The notes under the pieces: generated by a model
Database searches by the model: none
Told to the model about the DNA's origin: nothing
Seen by the model: only the letters and a program-made list of their open reading frames with translations
Shown: piece by piece, positions 6,315 through 55,186 of the stretch
Layout of the letters: each line of letters starts with the position of its first letter
How positions within the stretch are numbered: position 1 is the stretch's first letter
Translations under genes and position numbers: made by a program
Assembly (NCBI RefSeq): GCF_004010195.1
Contig: NC_057718.1
Span: 85,153,136-85,217,135 of the forward strand
Direction of reading: 5' to 3'
Length of the DNA: 64,000 bases
Origin: Chiloscyllium plagiosum
Taxonomy: Eukaryota

Positions 6315-9300
6315 TCATAGAGTCAGAGTCATAGAGATGTACAGCACAGACCAGACCCTTTGGTCCAACTCATCCATGCTAACCAGATATTCCAACCCAA
6401 TCTAGTCCATTTGCCAACACTAAGCCCATATCCCTCTAAACCCTTCCTATTTATATACCCATTCAGATGCCTTTTAAATGCTGCAATTGTACCAGCCTCC
6501 ACTACTTCCTCTGGCAACTCATTTCACGAGTCATAGAGATGTACAGCAAAGACCAGACCCTTTGGTCCAACTCATCCATGCCAACCAGATATTCTAACCC
6601 AATCTAGTCCATTTGCCAACACTAGGCCCATATTCCTCTAAACCCTTCCTATTTATATACCCATTCAGATGCCTTTTAAATGCTGCAATTGTACCAGCCT
6701 CCACTACTTCCTCTGGCAACTCATTTCACACACACATCACCCTCTGTGTGAAAATGTTGCCCCTTAAGTCTCTTTTAGATCTTTTCCCTCTCACCCTAAA
6801 CCTATGCCCTCTAGTTCTGGACTCCCCAACCCAGGGAAAAGACTGTCTATTTATCTTACCCATGCCCCCTCATGATTTTATAAACCTCTATAAGGTCACC
6901 CCTCAGCCTCTGACATTCCAGGGAAAATAGCCCCAGCTTATTCAGCCTCTCCCTTTAGCTCAAATCCTCCAATCCTGGCAACATCCTTGTAATATTTTCT
7001 GAACCCTTTTAAGTTTCACAACATCCTTCCGATAGGAAGACTAGAATTTCACGCAATACTCCAACAGTGGCCTAACCCATGTCCTGTGCAGCTGCAACAT
7101 GACACCCCAACTCAGGTACTCAATACTCTGACCAATAAAGCAAAGCATACCAAACACCTTCTTCACTATCCTATCTACCTGCGACTCTACTTTCTTGGAG
7201 CTATGAACATCCACTCCAAGGTCTCTTTGTATAACAACACTCCCCATGACCTTACCATAAGTGTACAAGTCCTGCTAAGATTTGCTTTCCCAAAATGCAG
7301 CACCTCACATTTGTCTAAATTAAACTCCATCTCCCACTCCTTAGCCCATTGGCCCATCAGATCAAGATCCTGTTGTAATCTGAGGTAACCTTCTTCGCTG
7401 TCCACTACACCTCCAATTTTGGTGTCATCTGCAAACTTACTAATTATACCTAATGTTCACATCCAAATCATTTATATAAATGACAAAAAGTAGTGGACCC
7501 AGCACCAATCCTTGTGGTGCCCCACTGGTTACAGGTCTCCAATGTGAAAAACAACCACCCTCTGTCTTCTAACTTTGAGCCAGTTCTGTATCCAAATAGC
7601 TAGTCCTCCCTGTATTCCATTAGATCTAACCTTGCCAACCAGTCTCCCATGGGGAACCTTGTCGAACGCCTTACCGAAGCCCATATAAATCAGGTCTGCT
7701 GCTCTGCCCTCATCAATCCTCTTTGTTACTTCTTCAAAAAGCTCAATTAAGTTTGAGATATGATTTCCCATGCACAAAGCCATGCTGACTACCCCTAATC
7801 AGTCCTTGCCTTTCCAAATAAGTGTAAATCCTGTCCCTCAGGAGTCCCTCCAACAACTTGCCTACCAACGACGTCAGGCTCACCAGTCTATGGTCCCCTG
7901 GCTTATCCTTAGTACCTTTCTTAAATAGTGGCACCACGTTAACCAACCTCCAGTCTTCCAGCACCTCACCTATGACTTTCGATGATACAAATATCTCAGC
8001 AAGGTGCCCAGCAATCACTTCCCTAGCTTCCCACAGAGTTCTAGGGTACACCTGATCAGGTCCTGGGGACTTAACCACCTTTACCAGTTTCAAGACATTC
8101 AGCACTTCCTCCTCTGTAATATGGACATTTTTCAAGATGTCACCATCTATTTCCCCACATTCTATATCTTCTGTGTCCTTCACCACAGTAAATCCTGATG
8201 CAAAATACTCGTTTAATATATCCACCATTTCCTGCAGCTCCACACAAAGCCCTACTGATCTTTGAGGGGCCCTATTCTCTCCCTAGTTACCTTTTTGTCC
8301 TTAATGTATTTGTTAAAAGCCTTTGGATTCTCCTTCACCTTATTTGCCAAAGCTCTCTCATGTCTCCTTTTCGCCCTCCTGATTTCCTTCTTAAGTATAC
8401 TCCTACTTCCACTATACTCTAAGTATACTCTCATAATATCTTGTCTATGACTGACATATACTACTTTCTTTTTCTTAACCATACCCTCAATTTCTCTTGT
8501 TATCCAGCATCGCTTACACCTACCAGCCTTTCCTTTCACCCTAACAGGAATAATATTGCCTCTGGACTTTCATCACCTCATTTCTGAAGGCTTCCCATTT
8601 TCCAGCCATCCCTTTACGTGCAAATGTTTGACCCCAATCAGCTTTTGAAAGTTGTTGCGTAATACTGTTAAAATTAGTCTTCCTCCGATTTAGAACTTCA
8701 ACTTTTAGATTTGGTCTATCCTTTTCCTCACTATTTTAAAACTTATGGAATGATGGTCGCTGGCCCCAAAGTGCTTTCCCACTGACCTCAGTCACCTGCC
8801 CTGCCTTATTTCCCAAGAATAGTCAAGTTTTGCATCTTCTCTAGTAGGTACATCCACATACTGAATCAGAAAATTTCTTGTACACACAAATTCCTTTGCA
8901 TCTAAACCCTTTACATTATAGCAGTCCTTGTCCATATTTGGAAAGTTAAAATCCCCTACCATAGCCACCCTATTATTCTTAGAAAACTGAAATCTCCTTA
9001 CCAATTTCTCAATTTCCTGCTGACTATTAGTGGGTCTATAATACAATTCCAATGAGGTGATCATCCCTTTCCTATTTCTCAGTTCGACACAAATAACTTC
9101 CCTGGATATATTTCTGGGAATATCTTCCCTCAGTACAGCTGTAATGCTATCCCTTATCAAAAATGCCACTCCCCCCTCCTCTCTTGCCTCCCTTTCTGTC
9201 CTTCCTGTAGCATTTGTATCCTGGAACATTAAGCTGCCAGTCCTGTCCATCCCTGAGCCATGTTTCTGTAATTGCTGTGATATCCCAGTCCCACGTTCCT

Positions 9301-12090: not shown

Positions 12091-12575
12091 CTAAATTCAA
12101 GAATAAAAATAAATTAGCCAAAACGCTAGCTTTCACTTTCCAATGGTTGGTCACATTATAATAAATAGAATGGCAGAGTTTTCATTTAGTGGCACTGGTT
12201 TTGCATTGCAATATACCTGAACTTGGTTAACCCAGTGCAAAAGATCAATGCATTTTAGGTGTTACACCCAGTCTGAATTATTTAGATGGTCACTTGAGCT
12301 GTTTGAAAAAGAAATGTAGAGCTGGAAGCTGTCCCCCTCCAAAAGGAAAACTGGCTACACTACCCCAATTTGAATTAATCGCTATCAAGCACTTTTGCCA
12401 AATGCATCATTTGCACCTTCCAGGAGCCTTTTTTTTTAGCTGAAGGATATTTAATTTTGCATTTACATTTTTAAAAACCTGACAATTACATGCCAGTAAA
12501 CAAAAAAAACTCTACAGAATTATTTTAAAGTTTTTGATAATCATATTACTCACATGGTGAATTAAACACCTATTA

Positions 12576-12737
12576 GGTCTGCAGATGCTGGAGATCAGAG
12601 TTGAGAGAGTGTTTTGCTGGAAAAAGCACAGCAGGTCAGGCAGCATTCCTGACGAAGGGCTCCGGCTCGAAACGTTGATTTTCCTGCTCCTCGGGTGCTG
12701 TCTGACCTGCTATGCTTTTCCAGCAACACACACTCAA
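12576..12737. mobile_element. Penelope terminal-repeat fold-back element
   Basis: Inverted arms (gctggaaaaagcacagcaggtcaggcagca / tgctgtctgacctgctatgcttttccagc); core CTGACGA-AGGGCTCCGGCTC-GAAAC-GTT at 12649-12676. Confidence 0.75.
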
Positions 12738-14310: not shown

Positions 14311-15036
14311 GCACTGAGAAACATTTTAAGGTGCAAATAAATAATTACATTCTAAAATACTGCCTGGTTGCACAGATTCATAAAGACTTATATGTTCTGC
14401 AACAAAAGAATTAATTTGAGCTGACAATTGAACCAAAACTCGATTTTGAAAAACTGGTACACTTTAGAACACAATTGCACCCTAGCGAAAACTCTACTTC
14501 AAGCTGTCAGTACCAACTTGCCAGTCATTTACATCAGTCATAATTGTATTGAATGACAAAGCATGCTCAAAGGGCTGAATATTTCACTTCTGGACTAGTA
14601 AAAGTAGTATTTGTCAGGTGAGACATTAAACTGAGATTCCATCTACCATTTGATGATGTAAGCAAGAGACTTCACAACGTTATTTTAAGAATTCATCTGA
14701 AGTCATGGCCCAATATTTAGTGCTCAATCAACATCTAAACACCCTGAACACCACCACTTCACCAACCTTGAAATCGCTTTGCATTTTATTTAATTCCAGT
14801 TTATGGAACCTGACTGTACGAAAATTGGCTGTTGAATTTCATTACAGCAGTTGAGGAAAATACCATACAAATGCAAATTCTTCCTTAATTGAAATAAATT
14901 GTGTGTCAACTGCAAAAAGTGGCCACCGCTAGACTGACTCTGATTAATGGAAAGAAGGAATGTAAAACACCTATTTCAGAGCTAATATAAATTTCCTTCG
15001 CAATTAAGACACTCTAGCTTGCCCACTGGAGATCCA

Positions 15037-15226
15037 GCAGGTCAGGCAGCATCCAGGGAACAGAAGAATCGACGTTTCGGACATAAGCCCTTCTTCAGGA
15101 AGGCTGAAGAAGGGCTTATGCCCGAAACGTCGATTCTCCTGTTCCCTGGATGCTGCCTGACCTGCTGCGCTTTTCCAGCAACACATTTTCAGCTCTGATC
15201 TCCAGCATCTGCAGACCTCACTTTTT
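15037..15226. mobile_element. Fold-back Penelope terminal-repeat mini-element with two opposed hammerhead cores
   Basis: About 63-bp inverted arms; cores at 15071-15098 (-) and 15104-15131 (+); TSD CCACTGGAGATCCA on both sides. Confidence 0.8.
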
Positions 15227-15472
15227 CCACTGGAGATCCAGGCTTGTACACATTGCTGCCAATTGATGGGATGAGATGGGAGATAAGCACACTGTTGACA
15301 AGTCACTTAACACTAAATTTCCCACACAATGTGTCACACTATTAAAACAAGTTCTATACAATATTGTTTTTGGACACAGTTCTCAGAAATATACTTACAA
15401 AAACATGAGGGGGAAGGAGGAAGGACAGAATTCAAATGGATATCTGTCTTCAATTGAATTCTAAAGTACTTA

Positions 15473-15622
<150 letters not shown>

Positions 15623-17139
15623 CTAGAGGGAGGAGAAAGGAATAAAAGTTTCAGCAAGTAAGAATCAAACATTTAACTTTTATTAGAAATTCCCCTTGTT
15701 CTGCCAATATTACAGCAGAATATTGCAAATGTTCAAAATTTGAATTCAGGCAACATCTGTTGACTGAAATAAGGTTAAAGTTTTAGGTAATGAACATTCA
15801 TCAGAACTGTTCCAGCACTTCCACCTTTTCTTCTATTTTAATTACTCTGTTTATTAAGAGTTGCAATTGGTCCAGGGTAAAAATACATTTATGCCCTTAC
15901 ATCCCTCTGACCAAATTTATATTTGGAATACTAAGTAGAAGCAATTTTGTTATGTAGCTCAAAAGATAATACCATGCATGTAGATTTAGCAGTAACTTTC
16001 ACAGGGAATGGATATACACTTAAAGGAGAAATTTGCAGGGCAATGGAGAAACAGCAGAAGATATAAGCACAATTGGATCGCTACTTCAAAAGGGCTAGAA
16101 TGGGTACAATGGGTCAAACGTTCACCTTTTGTGCTGCAAGTACATACTGTAAGTTCAATCTTGTGAAATCTCTCTGTCCATTAGCGATATTGACTTATTT
16201 TAGCAATTGAAATTGTGTGTAGATTCTCAATGTTCTGGATGGTGAATATATCAATGTAACTTCCTAAGTAATAAACATATGGTGCATCAATAAAATCCTC
16301 TTCAGGTTGAAGCAGTGTGATCACAGCCACTAGGAAACTCTGCTTGCCAAGCAAATATTGAGGAATATCTAAGCTTGGTACTGCATAGACCAATGAAGTA
16401 TAGATCAGAAAGCTGAGTACTCTGTGGTGTGATTGGAGATTACATTATGCTGCACCATTTATTTGTGTATTTGCTATAAAATGGAATTTTCATAGTACTG
16501 CAGATAAAAAAGCTAAAATCAATTTTTGTGTCAGTGCTGTAATGTAACTTAAAGTTACAATATAGTTTTATTAAGATTATTAGCAGAAACATATACTCAA
16601 ACAGAATAAAAAGCAGCTCCAATGTTAACCTAGACCACACTGCAGGAACATTGGCCAGCTTCTTCAATTCATGTTTATCCTTACGTTTGCTGGCTTCTAT
16701 TGACTCCTGGCCCAGTTTCTCCCCGATTTTAACATTCTCATTTTCACTGTATCGCTCCTTCTTACCACTGCCTTACAAATCTCTAAAACCTCAAACTTCC
16801 TCAGATGTTGGATACTTGTGCATTTCCCACCTCCTTCACTCCAACTTCTATGGCCAAATTCTCTCAATAAACTTCTTAACCTCTCTTCCTTGAAGTAGTT
16901 TCTCAAAACCTACATATTTGATCAAGTATTTAGTTACCTGTCCTAAGGACTCCTTTTTTTCACGTAGTGTCAGTTTTTATCAGATTCACACTACTATACA
17001 TTGGCCTGGGATATTTCACTTTATCCAATTCAATAATACTGAGAGAATAGAGCATCACATGGATGGTAAGAGATTGATACTAATTATAGCAAATCCTAGT
17101 TAGACATAAGGAGGCTTTGCAGAAGTGAAATCAGGAAAT

Positions 17140-17271
17140 CTTTGAGGAGAAAGTGAGGTCTGCAGATGCTGGAGATCAGAGCTGAAGAAGGGCTTATGCC
17201 CGAAACGTCGATTCTCCTGTTCCCTGGATGCTGCCTGACCTGCTGCGCTTTTCCAGCAACACATTTTCAGC
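17140..17271 (+). mobile_element. Penelope terminal-repeat mini-element with hammerhead core
   Basis: CTGAAGA-AGGGCTTATGCCC-GAAAC-GTC at 17182-17209; 14-bp TSD TGAAATCAGGAAAT at 17126-17139 and 17272-17285. Confidence 0.8.
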
Positions 17272-17757
17272 TGAAATCAGGAAATGTAAGTTCTGAAACA
17301 GAGACAATATTGCAGACACAGTACGGTATTTGAAACTGTGCTCAAAAGTTGAACGCAACAGAGCACAGATCAAAATATGGAAATAAAAATGGAAATAAAA
17401 CGACAGCTGGTGGAGAATGAAGGATGGAAAGAAATAAATCTCATCTTTAACAAAATACTATTGATTAAACCAAGAACTTCATCTTTTGATACATGTCTAT
17501 ACAAACCAATGTCCAGAAGAGAATTCAACAGAATAGATTCATTTTAATATGAAAAGGAGATTTTGTTCCTGGAACAGAATTAAAAGCAAAAGACAGTATC
17601 AAAATGGAACATCATGATGAAAATATTTGCTATATAATCATAAAGGTAATTAGAACACACTACCAGCTAAGCAATAAAAGGCTCCGAATGTTACACTTTG
17701 GTCAAAAACATTTATGCATTAAACAATGAACTGGGTAATACAATACTACAAACCAAC

Positions 17758-18499: not shown

Positions 18500-21165
18500 A
18501 TTAGGGAGGGTGGGAAAAAAGGAGGGGGGGTGGCATTGCTAATTAGAAATGGTATAACGGCTGCAGAAAGGAAGTTTGAGGGGGATCTGCCTTTGGAGGT
18601 AGTGTGGGCTGAAGTCAGAAATAGGAAAGGTGCAGTCACCTTGTTGGGTGTTTACTATAGGCCCCCCAATAGCAGCAGAGATGTGGAGAAACAGATTGGG
18701 AAACAGATTTTGGAAAAGTGCAGAAGCCACAGGGTCGTAGTCATGGGCGACTTCAACTTCCCAAATATTGATTGGAAGCTCTTTAGATCAAGTAGATTGG
18801 ATGGGGCGGTGTATGTGCAGTGTGTCCAGGAAGCTTTTCTAACGCAGTATGTAGATTGTCCAACCAGAGGGGAGGCCATATTGGATTTGGTACTCGGTAA
18901 TGAACCGGGACAAGTGGTGGGCTTGTTAGTGGGTGAACATTTTGGTGATGGTGACCACAATTCTGTGACTTTCACCTTGGTTATGGAGAGAGATAGGTGC
19001 GCACAACAAGGTAGATTTTATAATTGGGGGAAGGGAAATTACGATGCTGTAAGGCAGGATTTGAGGAGCATACGTGGGGAGCATAGGCTGTCAGGGAAGG
19101 ATGTGGAGGAAATGTGGAACTTTTTCAAAGAGCAGATACGACGTGTCCATGATATGTATGTACCTACCAGGCAGGAAAGAAATGGTCGTGTGAGGGAGCC
19201 TTGGTTGACGAGAGAGGTTGAAGGTCTGGTAAAGAGGAAGAAGGAGGCATACATAAGGTTGAGGAAACAGGATTCAGACAGAGCAGTGGAGGGATACAGG
19301 ATAGCCAGAAGGGACCTGAAGAAAGGGAATAGGAGAGCTAAGAGAGGGCATGAAAAATCATTGGCGGATAGGATCAAGGATAACCCCAAGGCATTTTATG
19401 CGTATGTGAGAAACCTGAGAATGACGAGAACGAGGGTAGGTCCGATCAAGGACAGTAGTGGGAGACTGTGTATTGAGTCGGAAGAGATAGGAGAGGTCTT
19501 GAACAAGTACTTCTCTTCAGTATTTACGAACGAGAGGGACCGTATTGTAGAAGAGGAGAGTGTGAAATGGACTGGTAAGCTAGAAGAGATACCTGTTAGG
19601 AAGGAAGATGTGTTGGACATTTTGAACAACTTGAGGATAGACAAGTCCCCCGGGCCTGACGGGATATATCCTAGGATTATGTGGGAAGCAAGAGAGGAAA
19701 GTGCAGTACCGTTGGCAATGATCTTCTCGTCTTCACTGGCAACGGGGGTGGTACCAGGGGACTGGAGAGTAGCGAATGCTGTGCCCCTGTTCAAAAAAGG
19801 GAATAGGGATAACCCCGGGAATTACAGGCCAGTTAGTCTCCTTGGGTGGTAGGCAAAGTAATGGAAAGGGTACTGAGGGATAGGATTTATGAGTATCTGG
19901 AAAGACACTGCTTGATTAGGGACAGCCAGCACGGATTTGTGAAGGGTAGGTCTTACCTTACAAGTCTTATTGAATTCTTCGAGGAGGTGACCAAGCATGT
20001 GGATGAAGGTAGAGCAGTGGATGTAGTGTACATGGATTCTAGTAAGGCATTTGATAAGGTTCCCCATGGTAGGCTTATGCGGAAAGTCAGGAGGCATGGG
20101 ATAGAGGGAAATTTGGCCAATTGGATAGAAAACTGGCTAACCGGTCGAAGGCAGAGAGTGGTGGTAGATGGTAAATATTCAGCCTGGAGCCCAGTTACAA
20201 GTGGAGTTCCGCAGGGACCAGTTCTGGGTCCTCTGCTGTTTGTAATTTTTATGAATGACTTGGAAGAGGGAGTCGAAGGATGGGTCAGTAAATTTGCAGA
20301 TGATACGAAGATAGGTGGAGTTGTGGACAGTGAGGAGAGCTGTTGTCGGCTGCAGAGGGACTTAGATATGATGCAGAGCTGGGCAGAGGAGTGGCAGATG
20401 GAGTTCAACCCTGCCAAGTGTGAGGTTGACCATTTTGGAAGAACAAATAAGAATGCAGAATACAGGGTTAACGGTAGGGTTCCTAGTCAGGTGGAGGAAC
20501 AGAGGGATCTTGGGGACTATGTACATAGATCTTTGAAGGTTGCCACTCAGGTGGATAGAGTTTGTAAGAAGGCCTATGGAGTATTATCGTTCATTAGCAG
20601 AGGGATTGAATTCAAGAGTCGTGAAGTGATGTTGCAGCTGTACAGGACTTTGGTTAGGCCACAGTTGGAGTACTGTGTGCAGTTCTGGTCGCCTCACTTT
20701 AGGAAAGATGTGGAAGCTTTGGAGAGGGTGCAGAGAAGATTTACCAGGATGTTGCCTGGAATGGAGAATAAGTCGTACGAGGATAGGTTGAGAGTTCTCG
20801 GCCTTTTCTCGTTGGAACGGCGAAGGATGAGGGGTGACTTGATAGAGGCTTATAAGATGATCAGAGGAATAGATAGAGTAAACAGTCAGAAACTTTTTCC
20901 CCGGGTACAACAGAGTGTTACAAGGGGACATAAATATAAGGTGAAGGGTGGAAGGTATAGGGGAGATGTCAGGGGTGGGTTCTTTACCCAGAGAGTGGTG
21001 GGGGCATGGAATGCCCTGCCCGTGGGAGTGGTAGAGTCGGAATCATTGGCGACCTTTAAGCGGCATTTGAATAGGTACATGGATGGGTACTTAATCTAGG
21101 TTACAAGTTCGGCACAACATCGTGGGCCGAAAGGCCTGTTCTGTGCTGTATTGTTCTATGTTCTA
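18500..21165 (+). mobile_element. Young 5'-truncated CR1 LINE; ORF2 (endonuclease and RT) split by one frameshift
   Basis: ORFs 18530-19852 (VYYRPP, MGDFNFP, DHN) and 19846-21099 (GVPQG, FADDTK) are consecutive; GTTCTAT-repeat tail. Confidence 0.95.
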
Positions 21166-21384
21166 AAACCTCACTTGCAGACTTGAATTTTGTTTGGCTC
21201 ATGGGATATGATATCAGCGGCAAAACCAGCATTTATTGTCCATCACAAGGTTGGTGTACAGGTCACTTAACAAGTAATCCAGAGGCCCAGGTTAACTCAC
21301 TGGAGACACAAGTTCAAATTTCATTGCAACAGCTGATGAGATTTTATATTTAATTAAGCTCAGTCCATTAAAAACTTAGGTTGG

Positions 21385-21498: not shown

Positions 21499-23846
21499 AC
21501 AGGCAAAAAGAAATAAAAACCTGGATTAGATCAACAGGTGACTGGTATTCAGGGGCCCAAAAACCCAGCTGGTTCACAAAAGGTCCTTTAAGAAAAGACA
21601 ACTGGTCTGGCCTAAGTAACTCCTAACCCTCAGCAACATGGTTGCTCTCCACTGCTCTCACAGGCAAAAGTGATGGTGACAAATGCTGGTGCAGTATTAA
21701 TAAGCAATAAAGAATTGCTTGAGAAGGATGCTGATCTTTTTCTAGGTGGTAAAATTTTTGTATTTGGCAGGGGCTGTCAGAAAGGCATCACTCTCTTACT
21801 GCAGTGCCAGCTATTGTTGGTACACACTGCTGGCCAGAGAGACAGTGAATGTTTAGAGGAGGAGATGGGGTGCCAATCATGTGGCTGCTTTATCCTGGAT
21901 GAAGCTTGAGTGCTGTTGAGGCTTCACTCATCCAGGCAAGAGGAAGAGTATTCATCACACTCGTATGGACAGGCTTTGGGAAATCAGTGAGTTACCCACT
22001 GCAAAGTTCCCAGCTTCTGACATGTTCTTACAGTCACAGATCCTGGGTTGTAGATAGACGGGCATAAACAGTAATGCTGTTGAATGTCAGTGGGAGAGGT
22101 TTAGACACACATATTGAAGATGGTCACTGCCTGGGCATTTATGTGGTGTGAATGTTAATTACTATCCATCAGCCCATGTACGAATATGGTCTAGGTCTTG
22201 CTGCATCGACCACTTCAGTATTTGAGGTATCCCAAGTGGTGCTGAATATGCTCAGTGAACACCCTCACTTCTGACTTTGCCAATGAACATTAATGCAGAC
22301 GTGGAATGGGAGTGCCAACTGGAAAAATCAAAAATGATGGTTCCCAGTCATAAGGATATAGTTTCAGAAATATATGAAGTCTTCACTCCAAGAGCCTAAT
22401 AAAGACTCCTCCTGTTGATTTTGAATTAATCTATGCAAAGACTGTGGAAGCTGAGGCTTCAGAGCAGAGAACCATATGGCAAGATTCAACAAAGCGCTCA
22501 ATATTGTGAGGCGTTTTGAAGGTATAACAGGAATAATCTGTTTGTCTGCAGGAGGGTCAGGAACCAAAACATAAACAAGTGGCAAAAGAACCAGAAAAGA
22601 ACTATTTATTTGTTATGATCTAGAAGATCCGAGTAACTTTCAAAAACAAAACCTGGATCAATATTTTGGGGAACTATTACAGGAGGAGTGAAGTTTATTG
22701 ACTAAATGCTTTGAGAATCAAGCGCAAGCACAATGATCAAAAGTCTTTTGATCATTGGGTTGGTATAGGTAGCACCAATGGCAATGAGCAACTGTTTTTA
22801 TCAGGACAATACACACAGACATTGTAACAGATAGATTCAGATTACTATAGACCCAAAATGACTACGCATAGCTACCATTCAGAAACTGGCATAGCTGCTA
22901 AACCACTGGCAGCAGTGTGTCATTATGGAATAGTTTGCTGGGTCAGTTCAGAGGGCAGTTAAGAGTCAACTACGTCAATATCGAGTCACATACAGGCCAG
23001 ACCTGATAATGAAGGCACAGCTAATTCCATAAAGGACATTAGTGAATCAGACAGATTTTAACAGCAATCTGGTTTGGTCATCATTACTACTGAGACAAGT
23101 TTTACATTCCAGGTTTACTTTTTAACTGAAGTTAAATTCATCAGCTACAGCAATGAGATAGGATCTCGGAATCATTAGCTCTGGTTTCTGGATTACGAGT
23201 GCAGTAACATAACCACTGGACTACTGTTCTGTTTCAGCAGCTTTCATAGTCATTTCTGTTCTCTCTGGAGCCAGCCCAGATACCTCGCTGATTGTGGCAT
23301 GGTGCATAAACAAATCATTATTGCAATCAGACAATAATCAACTATACACTGAACATGTTTTGATTGCAAAAGGTTGCCCAATCGCACAGCACAACGTGAA
23401 GTAAAATGCACCAAATGTTAGTGCTTGCAGCACAGAATCATAAAACATCATATTGACTAAGTTTCACAACATGGTTAGACCAAACAGTACGCTTTGAGCA
23501 TAAACACGCAGGATATGAAGTACTTTGTGAGGCACAAGCACGTGAACTTTGCTGTGCCTCACTGTACAGTGTACTTTGTACCTGCTCAAAGTACATACCT
23601 AAGTTTCAACAACTTGGTTAGACCAAACAAAATACTTGGAGCTGAAACAGACATTACAATCTATTTTGTGCACACACAAGGCAGAACACATGCACGATGG
23701 TATACACTGTGAGAGTGCCCACAGCACAGTGTCATCTTTGCACTTCCACAGTATAACATGCAATGTGCACTGCAAGATGACATCTATAAGTCAATATTAA
23801 AAAATTAAACATTTCTACGACACATTCATACACAATGCACACACTG

Positions 23847-24057
23847 TATAGGGGAGATGTCAGGGGTGGGTTCTTTACCCAGAGAGTGGTGGGGGCATGG
23901 AATGCGCTGCCCGTGGGAGTGGTAGAGTCGGAATCATTGGCGACCTTTAAGCGGCATTTGGATAGGTACATGGATGGGTACTTAATCTAGGTTAGAAGTT
24001 CGGCACAACATCGTGGGCCGAAGGGCCTGTTCTGTGCTGTATTGTTCTATGTTCTAT
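23847..24057 (+). mobile_element. 3' end of the same young CR1 family
   Basis: Differs from 20956-21165 at only about 4 positions. Confidence 0.9.
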
Positions 24058-25850
24058 AACTAGTCTAGGTGATGTTACCACAATGCAACCACAGCATCAA
24101 ATGCATTAACATAATGGCTACTTTACTGGAAACAAGAGAACGGCATCCATAATCTAGAAAAATATAGGTTGAATATTAATTGCAGGGATTTGTCTCAAAA
24201 CTTGGCTCAATTGCAGTAAAGGAGTCTGGAGGCGACTGTGGCACAGTTGTGAAGGAGATTTGACCAATTAAGAAGAGTTTCTCCAGATGCTCGGCCCAAT
24301 AAAAGGATGGCAGGTCGATCCCACGACCTGAATGCAGTTAAGGTTCTGGGGAACTAGCAGTCCCACCCGGAAATATGGGTGCAGTCACTGTAGGTGGGAG
24401 GCCAGTGAAGACATCTGAAGATAGAAATACTCTCTGAACACTTGTAAATAACACAAAACATCCATTGACCAGAGTTGTCGGGTTAACACAGCAACAGGAG
24501 TACTCTTCTCCAGAATGGTAATAAACTGCAGCTTTCTTACATCAGCATATCCAACATTGCAGATATGCCTCTGATTATTGACACGTTGCCATAATTCCTC
24601 AAGGGAATCCATCGAGAGGTCTACTTGGCTATTCTGATATACTTTTCTCATTTACTTTACTAGGTAACTGCTTGCCCAGTTCAAATAAGTTTCTTATACA
24701 TAGAAAAAGTATCACTACCATTTAAAGTGAACTGCTAAAGGGTCACTTAATCAACTGCTAAAGTGTCGACCAGCTTGATGTTTTTACTCATTTTTAGTTA
24801 GGTCGTGCAATTATCATCCAAAAACTGCCATCCTTGTTTTCATCCTTCATGACCTTCGCTCCTCCCTTATTTTCGCAAGCTTGTCCAGCCATACAATCTA
24901 TCAGGATCTGTATTCCTCCAATTCTGCTCTCTTCCCATATTTATGGAAAGACACAAAGGAGTTGGCGGTGGCTCAGAGGTGGTTTACTAGATTGATGCTA
25001 GAAATCACAGCATGTCAGGCAGCATCAGAGGAGGGTGAGCGAGCTAACATGGAGTCTAGATAGCTCCTCTTCATTTTTGTTTTCAGTACAGATTCCAGAA
25101 TCTGCAGTAATTTGCTCCTTTACTAGATTGATACCTGGAATGAGTGGATTGTCTTATGAAGATAGGTTGGACACGTGGACAATATGGACACTTTTTTTCA
25201 GAAAAGTGAGGGGTGACTTGGTTGAAATGTATAAGATACTGAATAGTCTTGACAAGGTGGACACAAGAAGAGTCCTTCTTCTTGTGAGTGATTTCAGAAC
25301 TGAGGGCCTCAATTAGGGGTTAACTTTTTCGACAATAATGAAAAGAAACGTTTTCTCTTCAAGGCTTGCTCGACTTTGAAACAATCTGCTTAAAAATAAA
25401 GGATGTGGGGTTGAACATTTTTAAAGCAGTAGTAAATTTATTCCGTTACCTAAAAATCATCTTAGGTTATCAGAAGTAAATGGAATGTGGAGTTCAAAAC
25501 ACAAATAAATCAGCCATGATCTAATTAAATGATAGAGCAGGCTCGAGATTCCATATGGTCTACTTCTGCTCCTATTTCATATGTTCGTAGGCTTGGGATC
25601 CAGAAGAGTAATTCAAAAACACATCATAGAATAGCACAGAAAGATTCACAAAGGCTATAGGAATGTTAGCCTCCACATTAGTGAACCAGATGGGATTTTA
25701 CAACAATCAATGCCAGCTATTATGGTCATCATTCCTGAACCTAGTTTTATATCAATGAAATTCTGGCCTCTACACTTAGAAGACTAGAATGTAGGAAGTT
25801 AGATGTAACACTATTCTTTGCAAAGCCCTAGCTAGGCCACATCTAGACTA

Positions 25851-26055
25851 CTGCAGGTGTTGGAGATCAGAGTTGAAGTGTTGGTGCTGGAAAAGCGCAG
25901 CTGGTCAAACAGCATCCAAGGAGCAGGAGAATTGATGTTTTGAGCATAAGCTCTTCACCAGGAATTCCTGATGAAGAACTTATGCTCAAAACATTGATTT
26001 TCTTGCTCCTTAGATGCTGCCTGACTGGCTGTACTTTTCCAGCACCACTCTCTTT
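25851..26055. mobile_element. Penelope terminal-repeat fold-back element (decayed cores)
   Basis: Long inverted arms centred on GGAATTCC near 25961; 13-bp TSD CACATCTAGACTA at 25838-25850 and 26056-26068; inserted in a CR1 relic. Confidence 0.75.
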
Positions 26056-27114
26056 CACATCTAGACTATAGCAGTTCTGGAAGGAACTAAGGAAGGAAAT
26101 GTATGCCTTGGAGAAACGTAATTTTACAAGAATATTATCTGGATTCTCAGGATTAAATTACAAAGAATAACTAGATAAATTATGGTTGTATTTCCTTGAA
26201 GTTAGAAGGTTATGCTTTATGTGATCAAAGGTTTCAAGATATTAATAAAGTAAAGTAGTGAGAGGATAAATAATTTTTCCTCCATCTATCCAGTTTGGGA
26301 ATTCTACAATTTAGGAGCTTAGAATAAAAATAACAGCCAGAGGCCTAAGAAATTAAATTAGGAAACATCTTTACAATTTGGAGTATTCCCAAAAACAGCA
26401 ATTTGAAAATAAACATTTTCGGCTGCTGGTTAATCATAACAAAAGATTACCTGGTTACTATTTCAATGCTATTTATACTTGACAGACACTACACTTCAAA
26501 AGTCATTGTTTGTAAAATGCTTCAAGAAAGCAATATAAAATGCTACGTTGTGAAAGCACAATAAAAAATGCAAATTTTTTGATAAAAAGCTAATTACCTA
26601 AACCATTTTTCAATACAGTCATAGAGATGTACTGCACGGAAACAGATCCTTCGGTCCAACTTGTCCATGCCGACCAAATATCCTAAATTAATCTAGTCCC
26701 ATATCTCTCCAAACTCTTCTTATTCATACACCCATGCAGATGCCTTTTAACTGTTGTAATTGTACCAGCCTCCACCACTTCCTCTGGCAACTCATTCTAT
26801 ACACACATCTTCCTTTGTGTGAACATACCACCTTTTACGTAAACCTTTAATAAAGTAATTCTTTCTTAAATCACTGGTCAAAATGCAGAACCAACAAGCT
26901 CTGAAAAAAAATATGCACGGTCTCTGTGTTTCAAGCACACAATCCTCGGACATGGATGGCTCAACAAGTCATGGAAATTTCAGCTAGCGGTTTAACATCC
27001 TAAAAATTACACCATCTACATACACAACTGCTGCTAAGCTAAAATATACTGCAGAGGCCCAATGGTATCATTCTCACCCAAACCAGAAGATTGCAGGTTC
27101 AAGCCCTCACTCAC

Positions 27115-30214: not shown

Positions 30215-30632
30215 AAATGGACAAGTTCACATTGTCCTACATTATATTTAATTGACACATCTCTGTCTAGTCACAGCTTATTTATTATTGCATTGTAGCT
30301 TCTTTATGTCCTCTTCACAACTGACTTTCCTATCTTTTGGAGTTTACCACCCTTCAAATGAAACCCTGTTCGCCTTGACCATTGAGTGTAGATGGTGGTC
30401 TAATTAAGGTATTTAACACAATCAAACAACTGAACATGGTAGGTAGAGAAAATTTCTCTACGTACTGAATTCAGAGTAAGAGAGCATAACCCTAACATTA
30501 GGATTAGGCCATATGTCAGGAAACCATGGTTCACAAAAAGGGTAGTGGGAATGTGGAGAAGTAATTGAGGCAAGGCCAACTGAAAACTTCAAGACAGTGA
30601 TTGATAATCAGATATGGGTAAAATAAGGTTAG

Positions 30633-30860
30633 AAGTGAGTAAGGACTGCAGATGCTGGAGATCAGAGTGTGGTGCTGGAAAAGCACAGCAGGTCCTGAGG
30701 AAGGGCTGATGCCCAAAACATCAATTCTCCTTCTCAAGGGATGCTGCCTGACCTGCTGTGCTTTTCCAGCTGGCAGCTTCCAAGGTGCAGGAGAATCGAT
30801 GTTTCGGGCATCAGCCCTTCATCAGGACCGGCTGTGCTTTTCCAGTACCACACTCTCGAC
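30633..30860. mobile_element. Compound Penelope terminal-repeat fold-back element
   Basis: Same repeat family; CTGAGGA-AGGGCTGATGCCC on + and CTGATGA-AGGGCTGATGCCC-GAAAC on -. Confidence 0.7.
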
Positions 30861-35850: not shown

Positions 35851-36654
35851 TGGAAGTTCATTCCAGTCACGAATCACTAGCTGCAAAATATGTGTCTCAT
35901 GTCTTTTTTAAATAAATCTCCTCTCACCTTAAAGTGTCCCCTACTCTTGAAATCTCTCATCCTAGGGAAAAAGCAACTACCATTAACTCTATCTATACCT
36001 CTCATTATTTTGTAAACTTCTATCAGAAACACCTCTCAAAGGAAAGGGAAAAACAAAAACTACACTCATATTGCTGGCAAACCTGTTGACAAGGGTGGTG
36101 CTGTTCTGAGTAAGGGTCACTGCAACATAAATACTCACTCTGCTTTCTCTTCACAGATGCTGCCAGACCTGCTGAGCTTTTCCAGCAACTTCTGTTTTTG
36201 TTTTCTGCTGTTATTGTCTGGTATACCAACATTCACCCAACAGAGGCTGAACACTGACTCTCCAATACTTCATTCTCCTTTGCCCTGGACCATAACTTCA
36301 CCAATGAACATTAATCCATTGTTTACATAGCGGTCACTACCTTCATAAACACCCCCCCGCCCCCAAAATCTGCCCTTCATATCCTCCAACCTCAGAACCA
36401 AATCCTGAATAGCCACTTCTATCTCTTTCACAAGTTCCACCATCAGGACTATTCTAGCAGACTTGTCGCACCAGCCTGCTCCGGCCCAATTAAACTGACT
36501 GCATCCTAGCTTGACTATATATTTTCTCCTCTTGTTTAGTCTTTTCCTTCTTGGTCCACGATTTTTCAGATAGCTTCTGTTATTTTGAATTTCTAACTTC
36601 CAAGCTTTAACAGTCTCATCATCAAGGGTGTCCAATAAATAAAACAAAACTTGT

Positions 36655-39280: not shown

Positions 39281-41260
39281 GTTCCTTTCAGAGGTATCTC
39301 TTGACATCAAGTGCATCTAGAAATCAATCAATCAGATTGAGCTTCTAGTGCCTCTTGAGGTAGAGAATTCCAAGGAGTCACAACCCTAATAAAAAACTCA
39401 TCTTGGTTCTAATTAGCTTACACCTTCATCTGAGACTGTGTCTTCCCTGATTCTAGATTTTTCCAATGAAGGGTTGGGGGAGAGGGGGCTGTTAAAGGAA
39501 AGTCCTGTTTAAATCATTTGGTTGAGGTTTTCTTGGTGAGGTAACAAAGGATACCTTGGTTGATGCTGTGTGTCTGCACTTCCAAAAAGGTATATGATTA
39601 GACAAATTGAAGCCCATGGATTAAATGGAACAGTTGCAATATGGTTACAAAGTTGATTTAGTGATGGGAACGAGCAAAAAGACTCCTCCTTCCCGCTCCA
39701 GGCCTCCCCACACAGTCTGGAGAAGGTGTACAAATGCAAATTCTCTAGTACTAGGATTGCTGCTTTTCCTAGTGTACATTAATGATCTAGGCTTTGGTGT
39801 ACAGGGCACACTTAGAAAACTTGCAGGAGACAAAACTTGTGAATCATGAGGATAGCAATAGACTTCAAGAGGATGTAAAATCGTCACAGTTCTACTGGAC
39901 AATGGGGCTGCTCTCTCATTAGAATGGTGGTTTAACCCGAGGGTTACAAAGGGAGAGGTTGAGAAGGATGGTCTTTCATGTTAACTGCAGCTGGCACAGG
40001 AATTGAGCCCTTACTGTTGGCATCATTTGCATTTCAAACCAGCTGACCCCAAAGGCTAGTGGATTGGGGAATAAAACTACTGATGAAAAAATGCAGAGAA
40101 TTGTGAAAGAATATATTTTGAAAAGAAAAATGAGGAAAGACATGCACTAAAATGATGCAATTTTAGGAGGATGGTAGTATGCACACAAATCTTTGAAGGG
40201 GGGGGCAGGTTATCAAAGCAGTCAAAAGATATTTGGACATAATAAGGCAAAATGTGCAAAAGCAAATTACCATAAAAACACTTAACTTCAACTGACTTAC
40301 TGCCTCAAAATTATGTCGAGATACTGGAGCTGTTTTATTTCCAAGAGCGTTGAAAGATGGTTTGATAGTGTTGAATACTATGAGGGAGCCAGAAAGGGTA
40401 GATAAAAAGAGACAAAGTCCACTATCACCAAGATTGAAAAGCAGGGAACACAGATGTAAAGGTGACCAACAAAAGAACGAATAATGACGAGAAAGAAACA
40501 GTTACTAAAGAAGTGATTAGGATCTAGAGTACACTGGGCAATAGCATAAAGGCAGATTCAGTTGTGGCTTTCAAAAAGGTTGCAGGGGAGTGGAATTAGC
40601 CGATTTACTCTTGCAGACAACTAGAATAGGCATGAGGCCCGAACATCCTCTTTCTATTTAACCATTCCATGATTCTTGTTAGAGTGAAGTAGAGTTTTCT
40701 TCTTAAATGTTGCGGACTAAAGATTTATTGTATGGCCAAACTAGACCAAAACCACACCCGGAAAATCCAGGCCAAACTAATGTTTGTCCCAATACAACGA
40801 ACGCCAAACTACGAAACCTAATAAGAAATGCATTAAACTGAATGGTAACATGAAGACTTGGTAAAACAATAAGGAAGCTGAAAGCATTTTACTACAGTAG
40901 TTCAAATTGCATGAATCGTTTTGAATTGGAAAAATCTAAAATTTAAAATTATAAACCACCGAACACATTGATTGATATTTAAAGTAGAATGCTTGGCAGG
41001 GTTTTTTTTTAAAAGAAAACATTTTAATCGTTTTAAAACTGATACCATGAACCCTAGGGTTTTTTTTTCCGTAGCGCGACTACATAAAACTCCTCTTATA
41101 CTCTTGCATACTTCAACTGCAACAGAGGGATACATTTCTAATGTAATGTTGTGCAAGCAGTATCAGTTAACAGTTGATAAAACGGAAGATATAACGATAC
41201 CCGGCCAGAAGAGGACGTGACTGGACTGAGTTGTCGGATTGCAGTTCAGCAATAACCCAC

Positions 41261-41503
41261 CTTGGGATCTTTCTCGTAATAATACTGCTGGGTGCGGATC
41301 CATCGCCCGACCAAGTGGTCGCGGATGGTGTGAGCCAGAGCGAAGTAGTAATCCCGAGGGGTAGCGACATTTCTGTCTTTGACCAGTGTGAAATGCAAAT
41401 GCCTGTTGAAGCTCTTCTTGAGCTCCACCACATCTCCGAGCTCGGCGATCCCCCTCACACTTATTTGCTTCCTCCTTTCGAAGTCTGTCAGCGGAGTGGC
41501 CAT
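41261..41503 (-). CDS. PYGB: Glycogen phosphorylase, brain form, coding exon 1 (81 codons)
   Basis: [81 protein letters not shown], then GTGGGT donor; 243 nt. Retains the RKQISVRG phosphorylase-kinase serine. 'LGDV' favours PYGB over PYGL/PYGM, which have 'VENV'. Confidence 0.95.
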
Positions 41504-42884: not shown

Positions 42885-43170
42885 TCAGATGTAAATCTTG
42901 CTGGGGTAATCAGTGCTCTTGGGCAGCAGCACAACCCAAATTCTACACGATGGTGACCCTCCCAGCAACTTGCTGAGCTCCTTGTCATTGTGGATGGTGC
43001 ACTGCAGGTGATGGCTTACTTGTTGACCTAGGCCATATTGCCTGCCAACTCGAAGATCTTGGTGGTCAGGTACTCAAGGATGGCAGCCAAATGAATGGGA
43101 GCCTCACCCCCTTGTCTGGCATTATATCTCTTATGCAGTTGGTAATGGATATGACTGACTGGGAACTGGA
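42885..43170 (-). pseudogene. Histone H2A pseudogene, central and C-terminal part
   Basis: LQFPVSHIH...APIHLAAILEYLTTKIFELAGNMA*...HLQCTIHNDKELSKLLG/RVTI...VLLPK resembles H2A LQFPVGRVH...[24 protein letters not shown]...HLQLAIRNDEELNKLLG.VTI...VLLPK; stops, deletions and frameshifts present. Confidence 0.9.
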
Positions 43171-43188
43171 GGTTGTATGTATGTATGT

Positions 43189-44110
43189 AAAAACGCCATC
43201 CCATATTCCCAATTCCTTCTCCTCCGCCACATCTGCTCCCAGGAGGACCAATTCCAATACCGAACAACCCAGATGGCCTCCTTCTTCAAAGACTGCAATT
43301 TCCCCTCAGACGTGGTTGACGATGCTCTCCACTGCATCTCCTCCACTTCCCGCTCCTCCGCCCTTGAACCCTGCCCCTCCAATCGCCACCAGGACAGAAC
43401 CCCACTGGTCCTCACCTACCACCCCACCAACCTCCAGATACATCGTACCATCCTTCGTCATTTCCGCCACCTCCAAACAGACCCCACCACCGAGGATATA
43501 TTTCCCTCCCCTCCCCTATCAGCGTNNNNNNNNNNNNNNNNNNNNNNNNNNNNNNNNNNNNNNNNNNNNNNNNNNNNNNNNNNNNNNNNNNNNNNNNNNN
43601 NNNNNNNNNNNNNNNNNNNNNNNNNNNNNNNNNNNNNNNNNNNNNNNNNNNNNNNNNNNNNNNNNNNNNNNNNNNNNNNNNNNNNNNNNNNNNNNNNNNN
43701 NNNNNNNNNNNNNNNNNNNNNNNNNNNNNNNNNNNNNNNNNNNNNNNNNNNNNNNNNNNNNNNNNNNNNNNNNNNNNNNNNNNNNNNNNNNNNNNNNNNN
43801 NNNNNNNNNNNNNNNNNNNNNNNNNNNNNNNNNNNNNNNNNNNNNNNNNNNNNCCCCCACCCCCTCTCCGGCCTATCACCCTCACCTTAATCTCCTTCCA
43901 CTTATCGCATTCCCAACGCCCCTCCCCCAAGTCCCTCCTCCCTACCTTTTCTCTTAGCCTGCTTGGCACACCTTCCTCATTCCTGAAGAAGGGCTTATGC
44001 CCGAAACATTAATTCTCCTGCTCCTTTGATGCTGCCTGACCTGCTGCGCTTTTCCAGTAACACATTTTTCAGCTCTGATCTCCAGCATCTGCAGTCCTCA
44101 CTTTCTCCTA
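43189..44110 (+). mobile_element. 5'-truncated Penelope-like retroelement (RT C-terminal region, gap, terminal repeat with hammerhead core)
   Basis: KNAIPYSQFLLLRHICS...RTPLVLTYHP...FRHLQTDP is typical of the PLE RT thumb/linker; 3' end carries CTGAAGA-AGGGCTTATGCCC-GAAAC at 43983-44007; 17-bp TSD GTTGTATGTATGTATGT at 43172-43188 and 44111-44127. Confidence 0.85.
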
Positions 44111-44127
44111 GTTGTATGTATGTATGT

Positions 44128-52577: not shown

Positions 52578-53835
52578 CCTTTAATTTCTGCTTAACTGAT
52601 TCTCCCCAATTTCTTTCATGTGAACTCGGGAGTCTTCTTACATGAAAACAAAACCGAGACCTTAAACCTTTTCAGTTTCCAATTATCTACAGATTTCTAA
52701 CCAAATCCTCATGGCTTGTAAGCTGCACAAATAAACTGCTGAGGTAATATATTCCAATAACTGCTCTGAAAAACTCCTTCCTAGGAGAGAAACTACGTTT
52801 GCGTCAGACTCTAATTAACTGTATACCCATCTTCCCTGAACTGTCCTAACATCTTTCAATTTTTCATGTTTCTAAACTGAAATTGATCCTTGATTAACGT
52901 GAAGTGGAAACAAGCTTCAATGCTTTTCCTACTTGTTGTAAACTCCATAGTATTACCAATTTTCCATTAACACTTCAGGATTTACAGTCATTCGCTCTCT
53001 GAGCAATGCTGGAGTAAGGTACTATCTCATGAGGACTTGGATCTTAATTTTATTTTAAAGAAAGCCCTTCTCAAATATAACATCCATATGTCACTAATTT
53101 GAAATGTAAACTCTAAAAATATCAATATATTTCAAATTACATACCTTTCATCACACTGACATTTTGACCATTAGACATAACACAGCAGATGGAATATGAT
53201 AAATTTTACTATACTCATTTCTGGAATGATTAGATTGTCCTGCAAGGAGAAATTGTGTAAATTTGGCATATACTTCTTGGATGTTAGAAGAATGAGAAAA
53301 ATTTTAAGGGGTTTGACAGGGCATTTGCTGAGAAAATGTTTCCCTATTTGGGGAATCTGGAACTTGGTCACAATCTGAGAAGATAGAATCTCTTCGGATT
53401 ATTTGTGACTGAGAATGATGGGAATTTCCCCGTCAAAATGTTATGAGTTATAATCTGTAGATGCTCAATTATTGCTCATATATTCAAAACATACTAATAG
53501 GTATTCATTCAGAAAATGAATGAAGGGCTTTGGGGTTAGTGCAGTTAGGTTGAAAAAGATGACCAGGCATGTTGCCAGGACCAGGCATCTTTTTGAATAC
53601 CAGGGCAGCATAAAAGGGTCAAATGGCCTACTCTTGCTCCAATTTCTTATGCTATTATGACAGCCATATTACATTGATGTTGTAGTTTTGCAGTAAGTTA
53701 AGGTATTATAATTGTCTTCCTCTGCAATGAATGAATTTATTAAGTAAAATTTGTGAGACATCATTGACTGATTTGGATGATACTGGATCTCACAGACTGA
53801 CTGGGCCTCTGAGCAAAGGACAAAAAGAAATAAAG

Positions 53836-54009
53836 GGTCGAGAATGTCATGCTGGAAAAGCACAGCAGGCCAGGCAGCATCCGAGGAGCAAGAGAATCAA
53901 TGTTTCAGGCATAAGACCTTCATCAGCAAAGGCTTATGCTCGAAACGTAAATTCTCCTGCACTACAGTTTTGACTCTGATCTCCAGCAACTGCAATCCTC
54001 ACTTTCCCC
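53836..54009. mobile_element. Penelope terminal-repeat fold-back element
   Basis: Same family sequence, inverted arrangement; flanking AGAAATAAAG direct repeat. Confidence 0.7.
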
Positions 54010-54936
54010 AAATAGAAATAAAGCATTGATACAGCAAGTTTAAGAATGTTAGGTGTACCAATGTGCTTTACAACCTATGCAGTACTTTTGAAAAGCAATG
54101 TAGAATTGACAGCAGCCAATTTGCACAGGGCAAGAATATACAAACAAGGAGATTATGACCAGGTTTCTGTTTTGTGATGTTGTTTAAGGAATAAGTATTG
54201 AATAGTCATCAAGGAGAATTCCCTTGCCCTTCTTTAAAATAGTTATGGGGAATCTTTATTTTAAATTATTCATGGGATGGTGATGATCACTGGCATGGCC
54301 AGCATTTGTTACTCATTTCCAATAACCCTTAAAAGGTCAGCCACCTTCTTTAATCAATGTCAACCATTTCTTGTATGTATATTTGTAGCACCGTTAAGAA
54401 GTTCAGGGTAGTTGACACAGCGACAGTGAAGGAATGTCAATGCAGTTCCGAGTCAGGATAAAGTTCATAAAGGAGCTTCCAGGTAATGATGTTTCCTTAC
54501 TTCAGCTGTTCTTGTCCTTTTAGGTAGTAAAGGTGCATTTGGAAGGTGCTGGTGAAGGAGGCTTGGCGAGTTGTAGACAGTACACATTATTTCAAAAGTG
54601 GGAATATTAGATTCACCAGTCTTTCATGAATATTTCTTCATTAATTCTGATATAAATATTTGAAGGAATAATACCATACATACAAATCTACTAAAATATA
54701 CTCTTGTCAAAGATGACATGTTGCTATCACTTCATTACCCACATATTATACTATTACCAAGGGGTTTCAGTACATTTTCATTGATTAAAAATGGGAACTC
54801 TTGCTCCAAGGAGAATAAAAACCAGAAATTAGGTAAGAAGCATTCTAACAATATTTATGTATTTATCCCAACTCTCCAAAGGAGCAATTCACTCACACCT
54901 TTGTTATGCCTTATTCCCTCAACTTAGAATATTATT

Positions 54937-55186
54937 TCAAAGTTTGTGAGAAGATTTGTAGCTCGGGTGCTCGTTGCTGTGGTTCTTTTCGCCGAGCTGG
55001 AAGTTTTTGTTGCAAACGTTTCGTCCCCTGTCTAGGTGACATCCTCAGTGCTTGGGAGCCTCCTGTGAAGCGCTTCTGTGGTGTTTCCTCCGGCATTTAT
55101 AGTGGCCTCTCCCTGCCTCCCAAGCACTGAGGATGTCACCTAGACAGGGGACGAAATGTTTGCAACAAAAACTTCCAGCTCGGCGA
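54937..55186. mobile_element. Second-family Penelope fold-back element with hammerhead cores on both strands
   Basis: 70-bp inverted arms 54989-55058 and 55117-55186 (1 mismatch); GCA-CTGAGGA-TGTCACC...GGGGAC-GAAAC-GTT-TGC on - at 55012-55051; 13-bp TSD TTAGAATATTATT at 54924-54936 and 55187-55199. Confidence 0.8.

Follow-up and report, generated by a model that had tools for sequence, protein, structure and literature searches.

The fold-back insert in intron 3 of a glycogen phosphorylase gene of the shark Chiloscyllium plagiosum, which carries a hammerhead ribozyme core on each strand, raises the question of whether such hairpins spread as a self-copying mini-element family or are merely left behind when a larger retroelement inserts. 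The stretch of DNA analysed here, referred to as the window, is 64,000 nt long (NC_057718.1, positions 85,153,136 to 85,217,135), and all coordinates refer to it. The answer that we consider very probable is that the insert is a dead-on-arrival insertion of a shark endonuclease-bearing (EN+), Neptune-like Penelope-like element (PLE), made in one event.

The insert, its host gene, and its parent element

The insert is bounded by two identical copies of a 15-bp direct repeat (15023-15037 and 15227-15241) with 189 bp between them, and its inverted arms of 64 bp (15035-15098 and 15104-15167) are 97% complementary and lie 5 nt apart. A preliminary description had reported a 14-bp repeat around an insert of about 190 bp, with arms of about 63 bp and a 5-nt loop; the insert size and the loop stand, while the lengths of the repeat and the arms are corrected here. 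In a numbering of the PLE 3' end where +1 is C3 of the hammerhead core, the left piece (15035-15101, minus strand) is an inverted, 5'-truncated terminal-repeat piece covering -3 to +64, with two differences from the right arm, and the right piece (15104-15228, plus strand) is a forward PLE 3' end covering +1 to +125. The right arm continues for 61 bp past the hairpin (15168-15228) as ordinary family sequence and ends in the element's tail of about 34-37 nt (15195-15228, plus strand; tail as defined in PMC8557442 and PMC11167929), which is present at one end only. Within the 5-nt junction (15099-15103), three bases match the element's native upstream sequence and belong to the left arm, and the other two are either untemplated or derived from a 7-nt slip. 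The insert contains no ORF. Both borders have microhomology to the target: the last 3 nt of the left duplication copy (CAG) are common to the inverted arm, and the first 2 nt of the right copy are common to the element end.

The duplication is perfect, the right arm matches that of a sister copy (core at 17182) at 64/64 positions and the tail at 40/41, and the two arms differ at only 2/64; by these comparisons the insertion is young, and its intactness needs no selection. The duplication itself is read from the sequence of this one locus. Of the 24 sequencing runs listed, 20 contain the stretch or part of it, with no RNA run among those listed as containing it, and word shares from this run search were left out as evidence. 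Nine nucleotides of the target 15-mer (15023-15037) match the antisense strand of the element's tail, a level equalled by 361 of 61086 window 15-mers (0.6%). A tail match of this type was found in none of the four other target duplications in the window, and the wider flanks of the insert are not family-like, with 1243 of 8622 random stretches scoring equally high. We therefore rejected the idea that the target was an older copy of the element; homology-aided priming at this site is possible, though chance is the likely explanation of the match.

The host gene is encoded on the minus strand. Its first four exons, at 41258-41500 (approximately), 17859-17758, 15622-15544, and 12090-11987, were located through short motifs of the known glycogen phosphorylase protein, and exon 1 was then checked against PDB. 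Exon 1 scored 149.8 bits against the brain form, compared with 144.7 for the muscle and 136.4 for the liver form, a small margin that makes the brain form (PYGB) likely. Thus, the earlier placement in "PYGB intron 3" holds as intron 3 of a glycogen phosphorylase gene, with the isoform likely but unproven. On the transcript, the hairpin lies 302 nt after the exon 3 donor. This donor, at 15543, reads GTCATT and is a weak, non-consensus site.

The identity of the parent element follows from a longer, 5'-truncated copy on the plus strand (43172-44127), which comprises an ORF remnant (43195-43521), an assembly gap, a 3' region, a core at 43983, and a tail, all within a 17-bp duplication of a TATG-repeat site; the copy proper (43189-44110) reaches about 790 bp upstream of its core. 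The forward arm and tail of the focal insert match the 3' end of this copy at 92% identity, and its core lies 3' of the ORF remnant, as expected for a PLE terminal repeat. Just upstream of the long copy, the minus strand at 42977-43150 may be a histone H2A-like fragment, as judged by eye. On its own, the ORF remnant yielded neither a useful Pfam match nor any Atlas match. In a search among longer proteins, 17 of 30 candidates were relatives of the remnant, and the seven named by source are all from carpet sharks (bamboo, whale, and zebra sharks). Among six relatives scanned, RVT_1 was above the cut-off in two and GIY-YIG was above it in one and sub-threshold in three more, with the GIY-YIG matches always C-terminal. 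A whale-shark relative aligns to the remnant at 69% over 109 aa, and a zebra-shark relative continues at its C-terminus through the hammerhead region in the same reading frame. Because reverse transcriptase (RT) and GIY-YIG domains are found among the relatives of this remnant, the focal unit is, by homology, the 3' end of an EN+ PLE, the full ORF of which is absent from the window.

The clade is probably Neptune-like. This assignment rests on a linker motif rather than a tree: in two relatives (P0002 and P0005) a CX4CxxC linker precedes the YIG motif by about 50 aa, in a region where the window copy has its gap, and a CX2-5CxxC motif in the RT-EN linker marks Neptune and Nematis (PMC8557442). 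Our literature search found no publication on shark Neptune-type Penelope elements; the family or a relative may be listed in the supplements of PMC4209133 or of bioRxiv 10.64898/2026.07.22.740005, the latter of which sampled one cartilaginous fish. As a separate observation, a pyrimidine tract ending in AG (43940-43960), about 26 nt upstream of the long copy's core, is a putative splice acceptor. Helix I marks the end of the PLE intron in Drosophila (PMC4209133), and an internal promoter has been placed in the Drosophila element (PMC2377424).

The hammerhead cores and their folding

The two hammerhead cores described previously are confirmed on the plus strand (15104-15131) and on the minus strand, which is that of the pre-mRNA (15098-15071, predicted cut after 15071). 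Both pass a strict minimal-hammerhead descriptor that matched four sites in the window, the other two being at 17182 and 12649, whereas 100 windows simulated with a first-order Markov model gave an average of 0.02 matches each. Both also have the CUGANGA and GAAA boxes, the extra base after A9, the G10.1-C11.1 pair, and the palindromic 15.2-16.2 positions of a loop-less helix III, features by which PMC4209133 defines the minimal hammerhead (min-HHR), and the earlier assignment to the minimal type I hammerheads of PLE terminal repeats is therefore upheld. According to the same source, min-HHRs are mostly solo motifs of truncated PLEs, and opposite-strand pairs of hammerheads lie 100-700 bp apart in Schistosoma, whereas the focal pair is only 5 nt apart and mutually antisense. 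Helix II of the focal cores is 4 bp, compared with 7-8 bp in Schistosoma, and helix I is 2 bp or absent, compared with a typical 4-5 bp and with 2 bp in D. virilis (PMC4209133). Specifically, the minus-strand core has one G-U pair in stem II and a 2-bp helix I, while the plus-strand core, which has lost the native 5' strand of helix I, has no helix I pair at the first two positions next to the core; the native upstream bases would give a helix I of 2 bp, a mismatch, and 1 bp, as at 12649. Neither core thus has a closing helix I of about 4-5 bp.

An Rfam search returned no hammerhead family among its 12 matches at E <= 10. The best of these were hairpin models, far below threshold, and we rejected them as evidence for a miRNA. 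One match, at 15069-15134, was to MIR6136, a miRNA family of ginseng (PMC3433442). The MIR6136 consensus itself looks like a hammerhead-like core folded back on its own complement, with a GACGA box, a short stem, GAAAC, and GUC; although its first box is imperfect, this family may represent a comparable inverted end of a retroelement that was annotated as a miRNA. A further hammerhead-like motif in the window (55018-55048, minus strand) has a 7-bp stem II and unrelated flanks, and fails the strict descriptor through two extra bases after the stem III palindrome.

Folding bears out the proposal that the core is buried in a long duplex on either strand. The minus strand of the insert folds at -159.8 kcal/mol (z = -19.2), with none of 200 shuffled sequences equally stable. 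The predicted in-context pair probability of stem II is 0.000000 on both strands, and when the structure is forced, opening a core with its stem II costs 41 kcal/mol on the minus strand and 37 kcal/mol on the plus strand. In transcription of the pre-mRNA strand, the antisense arm precedes the core, and by symmetry the same holds for the other strand. Moreover, the two cores are on opposite strands, so no core dimer can form within one RNA. Cleavage from this locus is thus predicted to be unlikely. The min-HHR monomer is reported to show no cleavage and its dimer low cleavage (PMC4209133), and cleavage by PAc, an anole PLE, is reported to be protein-dependent (PMC11167929). The "self-muzzled ribozyme" of the preliminary description therefore survives as a structure; the muzzling, however, is most likely a by-product, as the antisense arm comes first on both strands in every head-to-head insertion. 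Processing of the predicted hairpin by ADAR or Dicer is possible.

Family copies in the window and the origin of the fold-back

The window holds seven insertions of this family, beginning at 12575, 15038 (the focal insert), 17140, 25851, 30630, 43189, and 53836. Two fragments (25002-25033 and 36156-36189) have the flanks of other families and were excluded from all counts. The sister insertion in intron 2 (17126-17285, plus strand) lies 2 kb away, has a 14-bp duplication, and consists of an inverted tail piece (+83 to +128) and a forward piece (+1 to +91). It belongs to the same young subfamily as the focal insert, with 100% identity over about 91-92 bp, but differs from it in layout and junction. 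The older copies are a two-piece insertion in intron 3 (12575-12734; inverted +47 to +116, forward -6 to +88), a fold-back with both cores, a zero-loop palindromic junction at -4, and a 13-bp duplication (25838-26068), and a fold-back with a 10-bp duplication (53826-54023; inverted +1 to +91, forward +7 to +126 with an internal deletion). A further insertion consists of four pieces with three junctions (30630-30860). This last insertion, in intron 1, nests a tail-to-tail core pair in a head-to-head layout and has a long duplex on the pre-mRNA strand.

Putative target duplications were identified in five of the seven insertions (15, 14, 13, 10, and 17 bp) and were not found for those at 12575 and 30630. 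An adjacent inverted 5'-truncated copy is present at the 5' end of six of the seven. In five of the six short insertions, the outer ends, read by eye from comparison outputs, fall in two separate intervals, one end within about +84 to +91 and its counterpart within +113 to +128, leaving the tail at one end only; the focal right end at +125 conforms to this pattern, but its inverted arm ends at +64, outside the usual interval. No two of the eight junctions in the window are alike, and the 21-mer spanning the focal junction is present a single time. In four of the five simple two-arm insertions, each arm includes sequence that its partner lacks. The focal insert is among these (-3 to +64 on the left, +1 to +125 on the right), which in its case rests on three (at most five) loop bases; the exception is the copy at 25850, whose arms are nested.

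Outside the window, scans for the pattern of this family gave no hits in metagenome contigs or prokaryote genome contigs. The decayed ends of two other families (36076-36200, plus strand; 24990-25075, minus strand) share the PLE's downstream motif but have different hammerhead-like regions, and on this basis are probably other PLE families. Intron 1 also contains near-complete endonuclease and RT frames of LINE type (18500-21099), presumably CR1-like, which measure 450 and 420 aa and are split by a frameshift. They are flanked by a 97.7% identical repeat (20955-21169 and 23846-24060) and have several related copies elsewhere. A tandem duplication of about 202 bp (97.5%) lies at the end of a LINE-like copy at 6326-6729.

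We propose the following sequence of events for the focal insert. The GIY-YIG endonuclease would nick both strands 15 nt apart, as the length of the duplication implies, and each 3' overhang would prime cDNA synthesis from an internal position in an element RNA. One overhang would do so at +125, where the tail ends and a 2-nt microhomology is observed, and the other at +64, with an observed microhomology of 3 nt. The two cDNA ends would then be joined head to head and filled in. The hairpin and its "muzzled" cores would be by-products of this reaction, and we expect splicing to remove the insert together with its intron, and the insert to have no function. That the hairpin arose during insertion, with each nick priming on an RNA of its own, is the most likely reading of the sequences, since no junction recurs among the eight and neither focal arm is nested in its partner, which means that neither is a simple copy of the other. 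In vitro, the anole PLE nicks and extends both strands, its RT starts at two internal sites bounding the tail, and uncleaved RNA is its main substrate (PMC11167929); the outer-end pattern of +84 to +91 and +113 to +128 matches these two start sites. This element, Anolis Poseidon PAc, therefore fits the outer ends of the focal family, although it belongs to the Poseidon clade, in contrast to the Neptune-like linker of the focal relatives, and primes without target homology, in contrast to the 2-3-nt microhomologies of the focal insert. The available text of that report does not deal with fold-back products.

The architecture otherwise agrees with that of known EN+ PLE units, in which a pLTR carries an adjacent inverted 5'-truncated copy at its 5' end and a 30-40-bp tail is often one-ended (PMC8557442). 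The head-to-head inverted 5' piece, one-ended tail, target duplication, strong 5' truncation, and junction microhomology are all shared with the focal insert, which differs in being a miniature with no ORF sequence. Rotifer PLEs likewise have inverted pLTRs, tails, and palindromic junctions, with target duplications of 8-10 bp, shorter than the focal 15 bp (PMC3846280).

It was for these rotifer elements that self-priming was proposed, and the same PLE origin with a second arm made by snap-back of one cDNA or antisense transcript is the best surviving alternative, though an improbable one. Palindromic head-to-head junctions are read in this way in PMC3846280, the copy at 25850 has the nested arms and zero-loop palindrome that snap-back would leave, and the 3-nt microhomology at the left border of the focal insert also fits end capture after snap-back. 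However, the other four two-arm insertions are not nested, each arm of the insertions at 17140 and 12575 holds tens of bases absent from its partner, and the anole element extends both nicked strands in vitro (PMC11167929).

A non-autonomous fold-back family, transcribed and retrotransposed as a hairpin unit, is less probable still. The intact duplication and cores, the very young sister copy 2 kb away, and the three hairpin copies in the window centred on the core would all be expected of such a family. Yet the sister copy has another layout and another junction, the loops of the three hairpins are dissimilar, as are their outer ends on both sides, and a duplex of 64 bp would make the region of internal priming inaccessible. 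The preliminary description had itself named a unique junction in every copy as the observation that would count against a self-propagating family, and this is the situation within the window, where a sample of seven insertions could miss rare recurring junctions.

Two other classes of insertion invite comparison with both-nick priming on two RNAs. L1 twin-priming pieces are adjacent, non-overlapping parts of one RNA. The focal pieces resemble them in that an inverted and a forward piece lie inside one target duplication (PMC2837659), but they overlap by 64 nt, which implies two template RNAs, and lack poly(A). Non-LTR retrozymes (PMC7229834; bioRxiv 10.64898/2026.07.22.740005) are, like the focal insert, short, non-coding, and PLE-related, with a type I hammerhead; they are, however, head-to-tail tandem repeats whose same-strand hammerheads release monomers or circles, whereas the two units of the focal insert face each other head to head, and each strand has a single core. 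As it does not have at least two head-to-tail, same-strand units, we rejected its classification as a retrozyme.

Long intronic duplexes are general ADAR substrates. The least probable reading, in which the hairpin or ribozyme has been retained because it serves the host within the pre-mRNA, through editing, small RNA, or exon 3 splicing, can draw on this and on a stem that is fully paired on the pre-mRNA strand, where both arm differences give G-U pairs, but it is countered by the youth of the copy, which leaves its intactness explicable without selection, by the roughly 1-in-4 chance that two of two changes fall on the G-U side, and by the similar hairpins all over the window.

The 5' ends and the role of the hammerhead

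The 5' ends of the family segments bear on the form of the template RNA. Four of 15 segments end before the core (797 nt of exposure), and 10 of the 11 that reach it stop at -6 to +7, its front edge; counted by insertion, six of seven stop in this interval. At the earlier rate, 6.8% would be expected to stop there, which gives binomial P values of 2e-11 for segments and 7e-7 for insertions, or 1e-4 when the rate is set to its upper bound, all of which overstate the case, as the interval was chosen post hoc and segments within one insertion are not independent. No segment (0/15) ends within 3 nt of the predicted cut at +29, and we accordingly rejected hammerhead cleavage as the cause of 5' truncation. 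Together, the clustering at the front edge and the absence of ends at the cut site suggest that the template RNA is uncleaved and begins just ahead of the core. We did not find such clustering in print, in a search that covered few subscription journals.

A more far-reaching proposal, which we regard as unlikely, is that the minimal hammerhead serves as the non-cutting head of a template RNA of about 130 nt and as a pairing device. Two RNAs would pair through the palindromic helix III and load on a dimeric RT-endonuclease, and copying from both nicks would leave the cDNA ends side by side, where they would be joined head to head. If this were true, fold-back stubs would be the default product of the reaction, and the PLE hammerhead, long unexplained, would gain a non-catalytic role.

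The focal insert is thus real and well preserved, and is most likely an ordinary miniature PLE insertion of described architecture rather than a new self-copying element; the inverted 5'-truncated copy plus tail and the minimal hammerhead are both published PLE features. As a single locus it means little, being one of very many PLE stubs, with seven insertions of the family in 64 kb. It is of value because it preserves a clean fossil of how PLEs integrate, in which the overlapping arms argue for two template RNAs and both-nick priming, and the 5' ends argue for an uncleaved template beginning at the hammerhead. Both bear on the question of what purpose the hammerhead serves in PLEs. Furthermore, if such stubs were equally dense genome-wide, shark introns would carry a large load of near-perfect duplexes for the ADAR and small-RNA pathways.
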